From Gemmatimonadota bacterium (GTDB lineage Bacteria; Gemmatimonadota; Gemmatimonadetes; Palauibacterales; Palauibacteraceae), in contig JBDHHV010000038.1 in NCBI GenBank assembly GCA_039589195.1, positions 13,288 through 77,287 of the forward strand: a DNA stretch of 64,000 bases, given 5' to 3'. The notes under the pieces are model-generated. The model saw only the letters and a program-made list of their open reading frames with translations, ran no database searches and was not told the DNA's origin. A program made the translations under genes and the position numbers. This document shows, in pieces, positions 55,067-64,000 of the stretch (the first letter of the stretch is position 1; each line of letters opens with the position of its first letter).

Positions 55067-57520
55067 ATGAGTCTCGCTCGCGCCGTTTCCCGGATCCTTC
55101 CCGTCACCGTGCTGACCCTCCCACTCGTCCACTGTTCGGGCGCACCGTCGGACTCTCCCGTGCGCACGGTCGAAATGCCGCTCAAGCTCCAAGAGCACCT
55201 CGATGCCGCAACGGTCGTGGGCTCCGAAGTGCCTGCGGACCGGCCGCAGCCCGTCGAGTGGCGCTTTGACGAGTCCCAGCCAGAGTGGACTCCGTACACC
55301 AATCCAGGCTCGCACCCGTTGGCGCCGATGCAGCCCCCCGAAGTGACCTGGGAAGCGAGTGCGCTGCGACTGAGCGTGGACGAGCGGAGCCGAACGCTGG
55401 ATGGCGAGGCGCTCGCCGGAATCCTGACGACAGGGGTCCCCGGTTGGAGGATCGTGGATTGGCCGACAGTCATCGTCCGGGCCAGGACGACCGACCCGTC
55501 TCAATCGCTTTACCTGATCGGTGGCTTCGGACCTCAGCTGGAACTCCTCGGCCGGGTACCCCTCCACGGAGACGGACAGGTCCAGACTTACCGCCTCGAG
55601 TATCCGGTGACAGAGGATCAGATCCCGCCTCTGGAGAGGATTGGGCTGGCTCTGGTGAGTCAGCGTCCGGGCTCGGTGGACATCCTTTCCGTAAGCGCCA
55701 AGCCGGCCCAGGCCGAGTTCCACGAGGCGAAGGCCGACGTGCGGAGCGTGGCCAAGGCCGACGAGATGCGGGAGGCGCTCTACGTTCACGCCCCGGCGCG
55801 CGTGACATTTCCGCTTCGCTTTACCGGCGAGGCCGACTTTGCCGCTGGTATCGGGTCGGTGCGGGCGGGCGACACGCTGCGCTTCCGCGTTTCCCTGGAG
55901 ATCGTGGGGGAGGAACTCCGGGTGCTTGCGGAGAAAACCGTCAGCGATCCGGCCCATTGGGTGGAGGTCTCGGCCCCGATTGAGGGAGTCGCACGGACGA
56001 CGGCCTCCCTGGTGCTGGAGACGGACGCGAGCCGTCCGGGGGCGGTGGGGCTCTGGGGAGCCCCGACGGTGAGTGAACGGAGGGACGCACCCGCGCCCGA
56101 TGTGATCTTCTACGTCATCGACGGTGCCGGGGCGGACTGGATGAGCCTGTACGGCTACAACCGGCGGACCACCCCCTTTCTCGAGCGTCTCGCCGGGGAG
56201 GCCGTAGTGTTCGAGAATGCGTACAGCAACGCCACGTTTACGCCGACGTCCACGTCCTCCTACATGACCTCTCTGCTGTATAGCGCGATCGACCGCTACC
56301 GCTCGTTATCGGACAAGATCCCGGACGGCGTGACTACAATGGCCGAGCACTTCGGTAGAGTCGGCTACCAGACCGGTGTGTTCGTCTCGAACCCCAACGC
56401 CGCGACAGCGTCGGGCCTGGAGCGAGGAGTGGACCTGGTCCGTGTGCTGGATCCGCCCGTGCCCGCCGTTTCCTCCGAGCACCTGCACCGCGCCTTCTGG
56501 GATTGGAGAGACGCATATCCCGGTACCCCCTACTGGGCGCACTTCCAGACGACGGATGTGCACGAGCCCTTCCGGCCGATGGCTCCGTTCTCAGGGCTCT
56601 TCATCACGCCGGAGCTGCGGACCCGGTACATCGAGTGGGACGAGGCGGCACAGTCAGACGAGATAGATCTCGGCGACACCGCTTGGTGGACGCGGCACGC
56701 CCTTGCGCAGCAGGCCCTGTACGATGAGGGGATGGCCCACCAGGATCACCACCTGGAGCGGTTCGTGGAGCGGCTGAAGTCAGAGGGCCGGTGGGAGAAC
56801 ACGATCCTCGTGATCGCGTCCGATCACGGGTATCCCGCCGGGAGTCACCGGAGGATGCCCGGTCATCCGAACGACGCGCCCCACATCCACCCGTTCACCA
56901 CGCGCATCCCGCTGATGTTCCTTTGGCCTGGCCACATCGAGGGCGGGCGGAGGATCCGCACGCCCGTGTCGATGATCGACGTGCTCCCGACGCTGCTTGA
57001 CCTGACCGGACTTCCCCAGCCCGAGGTAGGACAGGGCCAGTCGCTCGCGCCTCTGCTGTTCGGGCAGGTCACGGAGGAAGAGTGGGAATCACAGCCCGTA
57101 TTCGTGGACGCCCTCGCGATCGATCTGGTCTCCGGGGAGCTGGTGGGAAACATCGAGGTGATCGACGGCCGCTGGGGTGCCTCGCTGTGCCTGCGGCCCG
57201 ACGACCCCGAGGCAGAAGTCCGGGGAGCGCGGATCCAGGACGGGTTGACGAGATGCACGGAGGCATTCCCCGGGTGGGAGCGGGAAAGCCGGACCCCGCC
57301 GCGCGAGCGCCTGCTGGTCTACGATCTCTGGGACGGCCCACTGCTGGAGCGTCCGATCAACGAGGAGCGACCGGATCTGGTGGGACGGTACACTGCGCTC
57401 CTCGAGACACAGGTCGAGGTCAACGCGGCGCTGCGGGAGATCATTTCGGGCGGAGGTCAGTCCGTGGAGCTGCGGCCCGAGCAACTCGAACAACTGCGGA
57501 GACTGGGATACATCCGGTAA
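55067..57520 (+). CDS. Lipoprotein paralog 1: novel ~330-aa N-domain + sulfatase-fold (alkaline-phosphatase superfamily) domain without the FGly motif
   Basis: Signal LTLPLVHCSG. Sulfatase-fold motifs VIFYVIDGAGADWMSLYGYNRRTTPFLERLAGEAVVFENAYSNA, VIASDHGYPAG and LMFLWPGHIEGGRRIRTPVSMIDVLPTLLDLTGLP. The FGly nucleophile region reads FTPTSTSSYMTSL (Thr in place of Cys/Ser; no C-x-P-x-R). Confidence 0.8.
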   Translation: MSLARAVSRILPVTVLTLPLVHCSGAPSDSPVRTVEMPLKLQEHLDAATVVGSEVPADRPQPVEWRFDESQPEWTPYTNPGSHPLAPMQPPEVTWEASALRLSVDERSRTLDGEALAGILTTGVPGWRIVDWPTVIVRARTTDPSQSLYLIGGFGPQLELLGRVPLHGDGQVQTYRLEYPVTEDQIPPLERIGLALVSQRPGSVDILSVSAKPAQAEFHEAKADVRSVAKADEMREALYVHAPARVTFPLRFTGEADFAAGIGSVRAGDTLRFRVSLEIVGEELRVLAEKTVSDPAHWVEVSAPIEGVARTTASLVLETDASRPGAVGLWGAPTVSERRDAPAPDVIFYVIDGAGADWMSLYGYNRRTTPFLERLAGEAVVFENAYSNATFTPTSTSSYMTSLLYSAIDRYRSLSDKIPDGVTTMAEHFGRVGYQTGVFVSNPNAATASGLERGVDLVRVLDPPVPAVSSEHLHRAFWDWRDAYPGTPYWAHFQTTDVHEPFRPMAPFSGLFITPELRTRYIEWDEAAQSDEIDLGDTAWWTRHALAQQALYDEGMAHQDHHLERFVERLKSEGRWENTILVIASDHGYPAGSHRRMPGHPNDAPHIHPFTTRIPLMFLWPGHIEGGRRIRTPVSMIDVLPTLLDLTGLPQPEVGQGQSLAPLLFGQVTEEEWESQPVFVDALAIDLVSGELVGNIEVIDGRWGASLCLRPDDPEAEVRGARIQDGLTRCTEAFPGWERESRTPPRERLLVYDLWDGPLLERPINEERPDLVGRYTALLETQVEVNAALREIISGGGQSVELRPEQLEQLRRLGYIR

Positions 57521-57561
57521 TTCGGACCCTCACGGCGAACACTCGACACAGGGAGGCAATC

Positions 57562-62644: not shown

Positions 62645-62806
62645 AGGAAGGTCTCGACCTCCTCGAATCGGTGGGGTAGCTTCTCGGTGAATCAGCTCGA
62701 CCACTCGGGTCTTCGCGCGAGCTGACGCCCCTCGCCCGAGGTGGTGCCAAACGGCTCGCATACCCGAGTCGGAGCCGGAGTCGCTGTATCCGTAGGAGGC
62801 ACCGCG

Positions 62807-64000
62807 ATGAGCCTCGCTCGCGTCGTTATCCGGGTCGTTCCCGCCGCTCTGCTGTGGCTGTCGCTCCTCGACTGCTCGGGCGCACCCTCTGACTCACTCG
62901 TCCTGACCGCCGAGGCACCGCTCCATCTCGAGGACCATCTCGAGGCAGCGGTACTCGAAGGCTCGGATGTGCCGGAGGACCTTCCCGAACCGGTCACGTG
63001 GAGCTTCGATGAGGCACAGCCCGAGTGGCTCCCGGTACCGCTCCTGGACCCGGACATGGCTCCTGTAAGTCTGTCGCGCACCGATGATGCCCTCCGCCTG
63101 GCGCTGGGGGACGCCGACGTTACCGACGACGATAACGACGCCTCGGTCGGCGCCATCTACATCGACCTCCCGGACTGGCAGCGAGATGACTGGGCCCACA
63201 TTCAGGTGCGGGCGCGATCGACCGCCGATGTGGATTGGATGACCGTCCTCCTCGCGTTCAACCTGCGAGACGAATCCGAGATGGAGGATGACGACGACCC
63301 CCCGGTGGAGTTCTTCGGCGAATCGGCCACGTTGATCCGCGACGGATCCGTCCAGACCTACAACTTGCGCGCGGACTGGTCCGGCGGGCGGTGGGAGGGA
63401 CCTTGGGAGCAGCTCGTGATCGCGTTCTGGGCCGAGGAGCCGGTCAGCGTCGATCTTTTGTCGGTCACGGTGATCCCCAAAGAAGCCGGCTACGCCGGCG
63501 AGGCGGTGGGCGTGCGAGCGGAGGTCCGCGACCGCGTGTACCGGCGGTCGCTGTATACGCACACGCCGGCTCGGTTGGAGTATCGGGTGCAGGTCCCCGA
63601 GGCCGCTCGCCTCGACCTGGGACTCGGAGTGCTGAGAAGCGACGCTCCGGTCACCTTTCGGGTCACGGTGAGCCCTGATGGGGGCCAGCCGGAGCCCCTG
63701 CTCGAGGAGTCGTATGACGACAGGGAACACTGGACCCAGCACTCCGTGGACCTCTCGCACCTCGCGGGGCAGATGGTCGCCATGGCCCTCGAGTCGGAAT
63801 CGGAGAGGGAGGGAACGGTGGCGTTGTGGGCGGCGCCGACTCTGACCGGCGCCGCGAGAGCCGAGCGGCCGAACGTCATCTTCTACGTGATCGACGGCGG
63901 CGCGGCCGACTACATGAGCGTCTACGGATACAACCGCCGCACCACGCCGAACCTCGAGCGGCTGGCGGCCGAGGGCGCCGTGTTCGAGTGGGCGTACAGC
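62807..64000 (+). CDS. Lipoprotein paralog 4 (N-terminal 398 codons; runs off the window)
   Basis: RBS GGAGG. Signal LSLLDCSG. The N-domain is collinear with paralogs 1-3 but has an acidic insertion (SEMEDDDDPPVE). The sulfatase-fold domain begins PNVIFYVIDGGAADYMSVYGYNRRTTPNLERLAAEGAVFEWAYS. Confidence 0.75.
   Translation, partial: MSLARVVIRVVPAALLWLSLLDCSGAPSDSLVLTAEAPLHLEDHLEAAVLEGSDVPEDLPEPVTWSFDEAQPEWLPVPLLDPDMAPVSLSRTDDALRLALGDADVTDDDNDASVGAIYIDLPDWQRDDWAHIQVRARSTADVDWMTVLLAFNLRDESEMEDDDDPPVEFFGESATLIRDGSVQTYNLRADWSGGRWEGPWEQLVIAFWAEEPVSVDLLSVTVIPKEAGYAGEAVGVRAEVRDRVYRRSLYTHTPARLEYRVQVPEAARLDLGLGVLRSDAPVTFRVTVSPDGGQPEPLLEESYDDREHWTQHSVDLSHLAGQMVAMALESESEREGTVALWAAPTLTGAARAERPNVIFYVIDGGAADYMSVYGYNRRTTPNLERLAAEGAVFEWAYS

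Follow-up and report, generated by a model that had tools for sequence, protein, structure and literature searches.

Old tandem paralogues in a Gemmatimonadota genome, related to arylsulfatases and phosphonate monoester hydrolases, with threonine at the formylglycine position

Results

Organization of the array

The window analysed here is a stretch of 64,000 nucleotides from a Gemmatimonadota bacterium (contig JBDHHV010000038.1, positions 13,288 to 77,287). The host of the array is a sediment bacterium. Four neighbouring genes on one strand, starting at 55067, 57562, 60176 and 62807, encode proteins of about 800 amino acids, and their open reading frames and translations agree with an earlier note, made from the sequence alone, that had described four paralogues of shared architecture. 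The landmarks PL[HK]L[EQ][ED]H[LV][DE]AA, W[RS]FDExQP[ED]W and G[AT]V[GA]LW[GA]APT[LV] lie where that note placed them, and a motif scan located the conserved C-terminal PEQLxxLRxLGYI[RN] directly ahead of the stop codon, as it had stated. The order along each protein is a lipoprotein signal, the PLHLEEHLDAA cap, two CBM-like modules, the catalytic domain and a flexible C-terminal LGYI helix. Copy 3 is the reference for models and residue numbering.

52574..54841, +, DUF5916 / CBM9-like protein, 755 aa, upstream same-strand neighbour
55067..57520, +, copy 1, 817 aa, the paralogue furthest from its siblings (39-42% identity)
55133-55135, +, copy 1 Cys23 in an atypical LVHC box
about 55154-56074, +, copy 1 N-region
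55178-55210, +, copy 1 cap PLKLQEHLDAA
56120-56122, +, copy 1 metal ligand Asp352
56240-56242, +, copy 1 nucleophile position Thr392 (F-T-P-T-S-T)
56540-56563, +, copy 1 HFQTTDVH
56822-56827, +, copy 1 Asp-His 586-587
57476-57517, +, copy 1 tail PEQLEQLRRLGYIR
57562..59964, +, copy 2, 800 aa in the window, 830 aa in its intact form
57643-57645, +, copy 2 Cys28, lipobox AAGC
57688-57720, +, copy 2 cap
58660-58662, +, copy 2 metal ligand Asp367
58780-58782, +, copy 2 Thr407 (H-T-R-V-S-T)
58794..58796, +, junction left in copy 2 by an in-frame deletion of 90 bp (at 58795)
58993-59016, +, copy 2 HFQTVDPH
59329-59334, +, copy 2 Asp-His
59920-59961, +, copy 2 tail
60176..62644, +, copy 3, 822 aa (module A about aa 50-226, module B about aa 231-343)
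60254-60256, +, copy 3 Cys27, lipobox STGC
60290-60322, +, copy 3 cap PLHLEEHLDAA
61169-61201, +, copy 3 boundary GTVALWGAPTL
61250-61252, +, copy 3 metal ligand Asp359
61370-61372, +, copy 3 nucleophile position Thr399 (W-T-R-P-S-T)
61688-61711, +, copy 3 HFQTTDVH
61991-61996, +, copy 3 Asp606-His607
62600-62641, +, copy 3 tail PEQLQTLRALGYIN
62807..64000, +, copy 4, cut by the window end, first 398 aa inside
62873-62875, +, copy 4 Cys23 in an atypical LLDC box
62918-62950, +, copy 4 cap
63812-63844, +, copy 4 boundary
63893-63895, +, copy 4 metal ligand Asp363

The nucleophile motif of copy 4, W-T-K-P-S-T, falls past the window end; the complete gene is present on a related contig (L001, 9946-12435), where it encodes 829 aa and is 63% identical to copy 3.

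Age of the duplications

Protein identity among the paralogues is 39-63%, and DNA identity 66-76%. Every copy has orthologues in other genomes, 58-88% identical, that are closer to it than its siblings in the array (58-72% for copy 1, in L002-L008, and 69-88% for copy 2), demonstrating that the four genes are old paralogues, as the earlier note had argued, and not a mis-assembly. The same gene order on the second contig, L001, speaks against a collapsed or duplicated assembly of a single gene, and arrays with 3-8 tandem copies are also found in L017, L035, L038, L045 and L058. An assembly artefact of one gene, which would have undone the earlier description, has a negligible probability: we found nothing in its support, the sole assembly-level oddity being the deletion in copy 2, and it is refuted by the DNA divergence, the second contig, the copy-specific orthologues in other MAGs and the recurrence of such arrays.

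The earlier note had also reported a deletion of about 30 aa in copy 2. It is real in the window, where 90 bp are missing and with them PSFMTGLQHSVLGGPTGTDPLPEQVVTMAE, most of the nucleophile-bearing helix (as placed in the model of copy 3) and the loop that follows it, flanked by microhomology of 2 nt only. It is not a trait of this paralogue: L001, which aligns to the window at 99.6-99.96% identity by BLAST, holds the extra 90 bp and otherwise differs by 2 SNPs and one 21-bp in-frame indel, and all copy-2 orthologues are intact. The deleted form is on one contig and the intact form on three. The deletion is an allele or an artefact of this contig, a specificity that is new in this analysis.

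Fold and ancestry of the catalytic domain

The Pfam model PF00884 (Sulfatase) matches the C-terminal halves of the proteins with E values of 1e-28 to 1e-34, and SGSH_C matches there too. A profile search of the PDB returned first the arylsulfatase SpAS1 (4UPI, 3e-36), then the phosphonate monoester hydrolase (PMH) of A. radiobacter (4UPH), SpAS2 (4UPL), SpPMH (4UPK), RlPMH (2VQR) and BcPMH (2W8S), and then S1 sulfatases; the arylsulfatase/PMH matches span 3e-36 to 5e-27, and the top 60 matches contain no LtaS, EptA, CptA or MCR. Foldseek with a full-length AF2 model (pLDDT 86, pTM 0.83) placed 4UPH at the top, and all top matches were S1 sulfatases or PMHs. These searches confirm the sulfatase/alkaline-phosphatase fold that had been recognised by eye, and demonstrate that the catalytic domain is nearest, by sequence and fold, to formylglycine arylsulfatases and PMHs, with identities of 17-22% only. 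It is descended from the arylsulfatase/PMH branch of the alkaline-phosphatase superfamily. Public databases annotate the family as 'arylsulfatase A-like enzyme' or 'sulfatase'.

The array family and the arylsulfatase/PMH clade share the Asp...Asp-His metal ligands, the HxP histidine, an SGSH_C-type subdomain and the LYDLxxD motif. The fourth metal ligand is His rather than Asn in PMHs and EfAS (PMC12421950), and likewise in the array family. In place of formylglycine, the array family has Thr or Ser as nucleophile; the arginine of CxPxR, the G-K-x-H pair and the second Asp of that clade are gone. Beta-sandwich modules at the N-terminus, a lipid anchor and the LGYI tail come in addition. The SulfAtlas S1 carbohydrate sulfatases (S1_8A 9BB9, arylsulfatase A (ASA) 1AUK, GALNS), the next-best PDB matches, have the PF00884 fold and C-terminal subdomain in common with it, whereas both S1 signatures, PS00523 and PS00149, are absent from the array family.

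The earlier note had likened the proteins to EptA and to nucleotide pyrophosphatase/phosphodiesterases (NPP). This likeness holds for the nucleophile, and not for sequence and fold. LtaS, EptA/MCR-1, OpgB/MdoB and CptA resemble the array family in that their nucleophile is a Thr that starts a helix, their metal site combines one acidic ligand with Asp-His, and their catalytic domain is extracytoplasmic and tied to the membrane; they are not among its top structural or sequence neighbours, and where they carry a polytopic membrane domain it has a signal peptide and lipobox Cys only. The NCBIfam models for EptA, CptA, LtaS and MCR scored 13-30 bits against curated cut-offs of 400-1250.

Active site

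On alignment to ASA, T-R-P-S-T sits on C69-T-P-S-R73, so that Thr occupies the formylglycine position, as the earlier note had claimed. A regex scan found no C/S-x-P-x-R signature in the four genes or elsewhere in the window. Conservation was counted over 217 non-identical homologues. Asp359 is present in 213 of the 213 that have a residue there; His505, Gln507, Asp606 and His607 are invariant (217/217), and His512 is nearly so (216/217). Position 399, at the N-terminus of helix 399-408 in the AF2 model of copy 3, carries Thr in 205 of the 217 sequences and Ser in 9, the sole nucleophile substitution seen, within a family motif W-T-[RKL]-P-S-T-A-S-F-M-T-S.

The equivalents of ASA Asp30, Arg73 and Lys123/His125 are a conserved Gly, Thr and Asn-Pro-Asn; Thr takes the Arg position of CxPxR in 208 of 217 homologues. 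Where PS00149 (G-[YV]-x-[ST]-x2-[IVAS]-G-K-x(0,1)-[FYWMK]-[HL]) has the Lys and His that bind sulfate and formylglycine hydrate, the family reads G-Y-Q-T-A-V-F-T-A-N-P-N, the G-K-x-H being gone and Asn449 conserved in its place in the 217-homologue alignment. Nor do the sequences fit PS00523 ([CS]-x-[PA]-x-R ... [TS]-G), in which Cys or Ser becomes formylglycine and Arg stabilises it (PMC5066984). The second metal Asp of S1 sulfatases is Gly360 in 202 of 217, and EfAS tolerates Gln at that position (PMC12421950). Because this Asp and the ester-binding Lys residues of the arylsulfatase/PMH clade are missing, known structures do not reveal what the substrate pocket is like.

N-terminal modules and lipid anchor

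Domain models found no match in the first ~340 aa of the four proteins, and searches with the N-module gave no significant sequence match in Pfam, NCBIfam or the PDB, in keeping with the earlier note; in a profile search of the PDB nothing fell below E 0.4. The CBM51/NPCBM model (PF08305) reached a best E of 0.0026, with hits in 5 of 29 members and none for the window copy. In the AF2 model of copy 3, residues 30-345 form beta-sandwiches of the galactose-binding-like jelly-roll fold found in CBM51/NPCBM; identity to these, to other jelly-roll CBMs (CBM6, 4, 22, 11, 29, 36) and to MAM domains is 5-19%. Peptidases, esterases, beta-propellers and a cytochrome-like protein carry the module as well. 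Since its fusion partners include non-glycan enzymes and non-enzymes, it may serve for anchoring rather than for substrate binding.

The earlier description of the proteins as lipoproteins is borne out by pattern matching, which finds a signal peptide and a lipobox with invariant Cys: in all 85 complete homologue N-termini a Cys stands 11-17 residues ahead of the PLHLE motif, and 48 of the 85 fit the strict lipobox pattern. In the window, copies 2 (AAGC) and 3 (STGC) have acceptable boxes, and copies 1 (VHC) and 4 (LDC) are atypical at -1.

A conserved locus

Comparison with related genomes, which the earlier note had proposed, places the array within a conserved locus that is new in this analysis: the array is followed by a PAPS-type sulfotransferase in convergent orientation, a pair of NPP-family genes and the gene of a membrane protein. 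The sulfotransferase (PF13469/PF00685) is the immediate neighbour in 13 loci, in most of them a few bp to ~60 bp beyond the last array gene, and two PF01663 NPP-family genes come after the array in 15 loci. Without a signal peptide, the sulfotransferase is cytoplasmic, and it is paired divergently with the NPP genes, sharing no operon with the array. Its conservation points towards sulfur chemistry. The DUF5916 cluster, present in 3 of 75 loci, is loosely associated with the array.

Discussion

The four genes belong to a large and uncharacterised family whose members, probably lipid-anchored, extracytoplasmic metalloenzymes, come from uncultured Gemmatimonadota and Acidobacteriota. The comparisons above show the anatomy, the fold, the conservation of residues, the age of the duplications and the conserved locus; we infer that the proteins are catalytic, which ester they attack and what the N-module and the tail do. 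The invariance of the metal ligands and catalytic His in the 217 homologues indicates that the array proteins are most likely active hydroxyl-nucleophile esterases. The formylglycine machinery has given way to a Thr, occasionally Ser, where the nucleophile helix begins, adjoining the metal site of Asp359, Asp606 and His607. The metal-activated Thr alkoxide would attack a phosphoester or, with lower probability, a sulfoester, His512 probably acting as acid for the leaving group, to give a covalent enzyme intermediate resolved by water or possibly by an acceptor hydroxyl, and maturation by FGE or anSME would be unnecessary. The beta-sandwich modules may bind the enzyme to a polymeric ligand or to one on the cell surface. 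The diverged paralogues, whose nucleophile is flanked by Pro, Arg or Lys, probably act on different substrates. We consider the chances about even that this explanation as a whole, old paralogues encoding Thr-nucleophile metalloenzymes that attack phospho- or, less likely, sulfo-esters, is correct.

To our knowledge, all characterised natural Ser/Thr-nucleophile members of the superfamily (AP, NPP, LtaS, EptA/MCR-1, PhnA, iPGM) transfer phosphoryl or phosphonyl groups, and we know of no natural Ser/Thr-nucleophile sulfatase; phosphoester chemistry is favoured, the two NPP-family genes beyond the array being a further point for this reading, and the earlier proposal of phospho- rather than sulfo-esterases is plausible. 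Thr in PF00884 proteins in general has long been known (PMC5066984). In five arylsulfatases and four PMHs, exchange of Cys for Ser costs only about tenfold, for sulfate as well as phosphate esters, and unmodified Ser variants of arylsulfatases keep some 10% of the sulfatase efficiency (PMC5488252). The hydroxyl nucleophile alone thus leaves the ester type undecided, and the conserved sulfotransferase neighbour counts against the phosphoester reading. It is conceivable, though unlikely, that these are maturation-free sulfatases or sulfuryl transferases, whose Thr alkoxide would attack sulfate esters without FGE or anSME and with which anaerobic or micro-oxic sediment bacteria would desulfate or re-sulfate glycans, envelope or exopolymer, together with the neighbouring sulfotransferase. 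The arylsulfatase/PMH descent, with SGSH_C and LYDLxxD kept, the sulfatase efficiency left in the Ser variants and the close, convergent sulfotransferase suit such a role, but the binders of sulfate and formylglycine hydrate in ASA (Arg73, Lys123, His125 and probably Lys302) are replaced, the sulfotransferase is cytoplasmic and shares no operon with the array, and the same MAGs retain canonical CxPxR sulfatases.

A transferase role like that of LtaS, EptA or OpgB, in which a membrane lipid would supply the Thr with a phospho-alcohol (phosphoglycerol, phosphoethanolamine or phosphocholine) for transfer to envelope glycan held on the CBM-like modules, with paralogues differing in acceptor, seems to us decidedly doubtful. 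The minimal catalytic set is that of LtaS/EptA (acidic metal ligand, Thr, Asp-His, distal His), the lipid anchor would hold the enzyme at the membrane, there are weak NCBIfam matches to EptA, CptA and LtaS (E 1e-4 to 1e-7, far under the cut-offs), and the PF01663 family of the neighbouring genes includes phosphoethanolamine transferases. Against this, all characterised LtaS/EptA-type transferases known to us reach the lipid donor via a multi-pass membrane domain, which is absent here, the domain is much nearer to soluble hydrolases by sequence and fold, and up to eight tandem copies suit substrate-diversified catabolic enzymes better than envelope decoration. Loss of catalysis altogether is very improbable. 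PbgA/YejM (LapC), whose NCBIfam model the family matches weakly (E 4e-6 to 2e-5), is a precedent for a sulfatase fold without formylglycine in a regulatory, sensor role, and by analogy a dead fold with CBM-like modules might bind anionic polymers; several canonical catalytic residues are lost, and copy 2 in the window tolerates in-frame deletion of its nucleophile helix. Yet PbgA has five transmembrane helices, whereas the array family strictly conserves a complete metal-nucleophile site, essentially invariant in the 217 sequences and between paralogues as little as 39% identical, which would be unexpected without catalysis; the nucleophile varies from Thr to Ser alone, keeping the hydroxyl, and the copy-2 deletion is confined to one contig.

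In the most far-reaching proposal, which we regard as quite improbable in its entirety, a formylglycine-to-threonine switch in the arylsulfatase/PMH lineage gave rise to a maturation-independent family acting on sulfate esters, forming a dedicated system with the sulfotransferase, the NPP pair and the membrane protein. If this were true, a Thr family would carry out sulfate-ester hydrolysis or sulfuryl transfer in uncultured sediment Gemmatimonadota and Acidobacteriota, the locus would serve to synthesise, remodel or harvest an envelope or extracellular polymer that is sulfated (and phosphorylated), and the CBM-like N-module would be a phylum-wide surface-targeting device common to many exo-enzymes.

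Array anatomy and age

Four consecutive genes make up the array, and their ORFs, translations and motif positions agree on a common anatomy; all of the motifs listed in the earlier note were found in the four genes. This anatomy is far beyond chance, and the proteins belong to a large, uncharacterized and mis-annotated family.

Genes of the array, all on the same strand
Copy 1: 55067–57520, 817 aa
Copy 2: 57562–59964, 800 aa
Copy 3: 60176–62644, 822 aa
Copy 4: 62807 to the window end, 829 aa on the related contig L001

For copy 2, the signal peptide follows the ATG at 57562, although the mechanical ORF opens at 57082. 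Minus-strand ORFs overlapping the array genes (e.g. 60299–62227, 642 aa) had no match in family HMM searches, and were taken as shadow ORFs of 66% G+C sequence; G+C is 64–68% throughout the window.

The four copies are 39–63% identical to each other in protein and 66–76% in DNA. Orthologs in other metagenome-assembled genomes reach 58–72% identity for copy 1, 69–88% for copy 2, up to 85% for copy 3 and up to 80% for copy 4, such that each copy is closer to its orthologs elsewhere than to its neighbors. Judged from these comparisons, the array is old and not an assembly artifact, in keeping with the earlier proposal of an old expansion. Mis-assembly of a single gene, which the earlier note had asked to be checked, is ruled out by the divergence of the paralogs, by the separate orthologs of each copy, and by comparison with L001, a contig of the same locus from another assembly, retrieved by a look-up with copy 3 as query.

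The copy 2 deletion

Over 11 kb, L001 and the window are distinguished by 2 SNPs besides indels, which are counted in the BLAST identities of 99.6–99.96%. Only two indels occur in the 11 kb, of 90 bp and 21 bp, both in frame. At window position 58795, L001 has 90 bp more, which restores PSFMTGLQHSVLGGPTGTDPLPEQVVTMAE; at 53414–53434, within a DUF5916/CBM9-like gene (52574–54841), the window carries an extra 21 bp, in frame (PYLLTGG), that is absent from L001. All copy 2 orthologs are intact at the deletion site, and an exact-sequence look-up placed the deleted protein on 1 contig and the intact protein on 3. The deletion of ~30 aa previously described in copy 2 is thus present in the window but specific to this allele; as a feature of the copy 2 paralog it is ruled out, being confined to this contig. 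Because the second indel is also in frame, true population variants are mildly favored over assembly errors. The 90-bp deletion removes the nucleophile helix, so this copy 2 allele is probably without activity.

In another homologous locus, L006, a Ser/Thr protein-kinase ORF (7265–10180, 972 aa stop-to-stop) ends in ~60 residues that match the copy 2 C-terminal tail almost perfectly (…HEERPDLVEHYTEFLEAQWAAH…LRSLGYIQ). This suggests a leftover of a deleted array gene, or a chimera formed with one.

The catalytic domain

HMM searches matched the C-terminal half to PF00884 (E 1e-28 to 1e-34) and SGSH_C. A four-sequence profile searched against the PDB placed the arylsulfatase/phosphonate monoester hydrolase (AS/PMH) group first (4UPI at 3e-36, then 4UPH, 4UPL, 4UPK, 2VQR and 2W8S), followed by S1 carbohydrate sulfatases. 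Foldseek with the full-length AF2 model (83 sequences, pLDDT 86.1, pTM 0.83) agreed, with 4UPH on top at 17–22% identity. These results confirm the sulfatase/alkaline phosphatase superfamily fold, while the likeness to EptA and NPP enzymes drawn in the earlier note holds for the nucleophile only: the domain is AS/PMH-like, and chains of LtaS, EptA and MCR-1 were absent from the top 60 PDB profile matches.

Alignment with arylsulfatase A (ASA) sets Thr399 (copy 3 numbering) at the formylglycine Cys69, as the earlier note had proposed, along with Asp359 at Asp29, Gly360 at Asp30, Thr403 at Arg73 and Asp606-His607 at Asp281-Asn282. In the AF2 model Thr399 forms the N-terminal end of helix 399–408, the predicted placement being where the superfamily canonically has its nucleophile. 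Of 217 non-identical family members, 205 have Thr and 9 have Ser at position 399; the Ser-type members read W-S-K-[PT]-S-T and occur in L018, L025, L029, L057, L059, L063, L064 and L071. His505, Gln507, Asp606 and His607 never vary; His512 is kept in 216/217, Asp510 in 215/217, and Asp359 in all 213 sequences with a residue there. His505, Asp510 and His512 might make up a second metal site. A conserved A-N-P-N stands where sulfatases have G-K-x-H.

Realignment uncovered no hidden C/S-x-P-x-R in the four genes or the window, although the same regular expression detects canonical sulfatases in three homologous loci (L002, L023, L031). SulfAtlas defines S1 sulfatases by signatures PS00523 and PS00149 (PMC5066984). 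Both are absent from the family, whose proteins should therefore be kept out of the formylglycine sulfatase class. Thr is also present in many seed sequences of PF00884, and these do not qualify as sulfatases (PMC5066984); its occurrence in this Pfam family is thus not new in itself. The unusual feature is its presence in an AS/PMH-like branch and in soluble lipoproteins that have CBM-like modules. Our literature search brought up no paper describing this family or any AS/PMH-clade member of the Thr type; EfAS, the "manganese-dependent arylsulfatase", differs in having Cys61/formylglycine as its nucleophile.

A divergent relative in L056 (18729–21566, minus strand), 29% identical in the catalytic domain and weakly matching in the N-module, has W-T-K-V-S-V at the nucleophile and the LRSLGYI tail of the array family, and adjoins a sulfotransferase and an NPP pair in inverted orientation. 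The family is accordingly broader than the four subtypes of the window.

The N-terminal region and the C-terminal tail

Residues 1–345 gave nothing significant in Pfam or NCBIfam, and their profile had no match below E 0.4 among PDB sequences. The AF2 model (29 sequences, pLDDT 92.6, pTM 0.83) shows two all-beta, CBM-like sandwiches. The domain reported earlier as novel is therefore new as a sequence family and ordinary as a fold. The region is composite, because its first ~190 residues, containing module A, are repeated in longer homologs of 994–1207 aa, ahead of module B and the catalytic domain (two copies in P0024 and P0033, three in P0040, P0064 and P0115).

Parts of the N-terminal region
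Short cap: PLHLEEHLDAAxVxGS
Module A, repeatable: WxFDEPQPDW ... DGTVQTY ... LDILSV
Module B: RRxLYTHxPGRLEYRVRVP ... GTVALWGAPT

Searched against 1.84 billion representatives, a profile built from the N-regions of the four window genes retrieved 1,096 proteins (E<=1e-3; representatives at 50% identity), most of which carry a sulfatase-like domain. The N-module is also fused to tannase/feruloyl-esterase, S41 peptidase, beta-lactamase-fold and cytochrome-c-like domains, to PD40/DPP-IV beta-propellers and WD40, and stands ahead of two long C-terminal parts without a Pfam family (P0188, P0216, P0249, P0252, P0152, P0243, P0247, P0150, P0141, P0200). Because its partners are so varied, we infer that its role is more probably one of general targeting or anchoring than of binding the particular substrate of its own enzyme.

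Plausible lipoboxes occur in copies 2 (AAGC) and 3 (STGC), and the Cys of copies 1 and 4 is preceded by His or Asp. All 85 homologs whose N-terminus is complete have a Cys 11–17 residues ahead of the PLHLE motif, mostly after Gly, Ser or Ala. We accept the family as putative lipoproteins on this Cys/lipobox pattern. At the other end, the LGYI tail described earlier recurs in nearly all homologs as L-[RK]-x-L-G-Y-[IV]-x. Ahead of it lies an LLLYDLWxD...PELV segment, a motif commonly seen at the C-terminus of class-I sulfatases. The AF2 model of copy 3 has a long helix (775–800), a flexible linker and a short tail helix (809–817) of low confidence (~50), a pattern that would fit peptide docking on another subunit or partner.

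Family distribution and gene neighborhoods

The full-length protein had >1,400 matches, and a scan covering a single genome for each species gave 74 loci. Most are in Gemmatimonadota MAGs, several of which hold many loci each, and others lie in Acidobacteriota (Bryobacterales, Thermoanaerobaculia, Vicinamibacterales, Aminicenantes). Arrays in tandem recur often, with 7–8 copies in L035, 5 in L017, 4 in L058, and 3 each in L038 and L045. Clustering of all ORFs revealed a recurrent order in 15 loci: L001 (12439–18272, just past the window end on the same locus), L006, L013, L016, L017, L020, L023, L029, L030, L035, L037, L038, L045, L056 and L058.

Conserved genes downstream of the array
Sulfotransferase: PF13469/PF00685, PAPS-type, 207 aa, opposite strand to the array, no signal peptide
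Two NPP-family genes: PF01663, 650–850 aa, after the array
Small ORF: follows the NPP pair
Membrane protein: ~275 aa, no known family, after the NPP pair

In 13 loci the sulfotransferase separates the array from the NPP pair, running convergent to the last array gene (a gap of a few bp to ~60 bp in most loci) and divergent from the NPP genes. Of the two NPP-family proteins, one has transmembrane segments and the other a lipobox, and each contains SDHG as well as a nucleophile-like motif, S-P-V-A-W. PDB sequence searches with the NPP-like protein and the sulfotransferase gave no useful match. Canonical CxPxR sulfatases (CSPTR/CTPSR...TG) lie within 10 kb of arrays in three loci (L002 3358–5112; L023 4884–6329, minus strand; L031 20986–22464), indicating that the same organisms have ordinary formylglycine sulfatases too.

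In the search for anSME or FGE near the array, a radical-SAM ORF (36340–37650) matched just generic rSAM models, far below cut-offs. Promoter and terminator scans of 54700–64000 gave nothing above shuffled expectation, Rfam had no match over 52000–64000, and the tRNA search found none. Exported hydrolases are abundant in the window. An alanine racemase (51330–52577; PF01168 and PF00842), located between a tricorn-like protease (47786–51178) and the DUF5916 gene, has an N-terminal twin-arginine-like signal (MRVSRRSFLSASAAALALPFA), suggesting that it is exported. A 998-aa S9-family peptidase (38681–41677) shows sub-threshold likeness to lasso-peptide isopeptidase and Dpp5. A gene at 31063–32295 on the minus strand encodes a TolB-like beta-propeller.

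Candidate chemistry

That a complete metal and hydroxyl site is strictly kept across paralogs of only 39% identity speaks for catalysis rather than a pseudoenzyme. To our knowledge, the characterized natural members of the superfamily with a Ser or Thr nucleophile all transfer phosphoryl or phosphonyl groups. Because of this precedent, the conserved site and the two NPP-family genes after the arrays, phosphoester hydrolysis is favored. The earlier preference for phospho- over sulfo-esters is plausible, although the Thr does not decide the ester type. Sulfate-ester chemistry is a less likely alternative that two facts keep in play: the PAPS-type sulfotransferase is a conserved neighbor, and unmodified Ser in place of formylglycine costs five arylsulfatases and four PMHs just ~tenfold in kcat/KM, whatever the ester type (PMC5488252). 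A transferase role as in LtaS or EptA is possible but less favored, since the family is without their polytopic membrane domain.

Directly after the nucleophile, copy 1 has Pro, copies 2 and 3 have Arg, and copy 4 has Lys. Another nucleophile-flanking position (103/107) strongly tunes specificity in AS/PMH enzymes (PMC5488252). The difference among the paralogs is compatible with substrate diversification.

Implications

Public records label the family "sulfatase" or "arylsulfatase A-like enzyme". Since the family fails both S1 signatures, PF00884-based sulfatase counts for sediment Gemmatimonadota and Acidobacteriota are probably inflated. Current understanding is not overturned; PF00884 proteins with Thr were already known. 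Added here are an invariant active-site set, a conserved locus with a sulfotransferase and two NPP genes, and the wide use of the N-module. Within the alkaline phosphatase superfamily, the family appears to represent a natural change from formylglycine to Thr that took place in the promiscuous AS/PMH branch. We know of no studies of the formylglycine-to-hydroxyl transition other than through laboratory Cys-to-Ser mutants, and activity data for this family would reveal which activities survive the switch and which residues compensate for it. The conserved locus and the promiscuous CBM-like N-module are leads to the processing of organic phosphorus or sulfur by abundant uncultured sediment bacteria.
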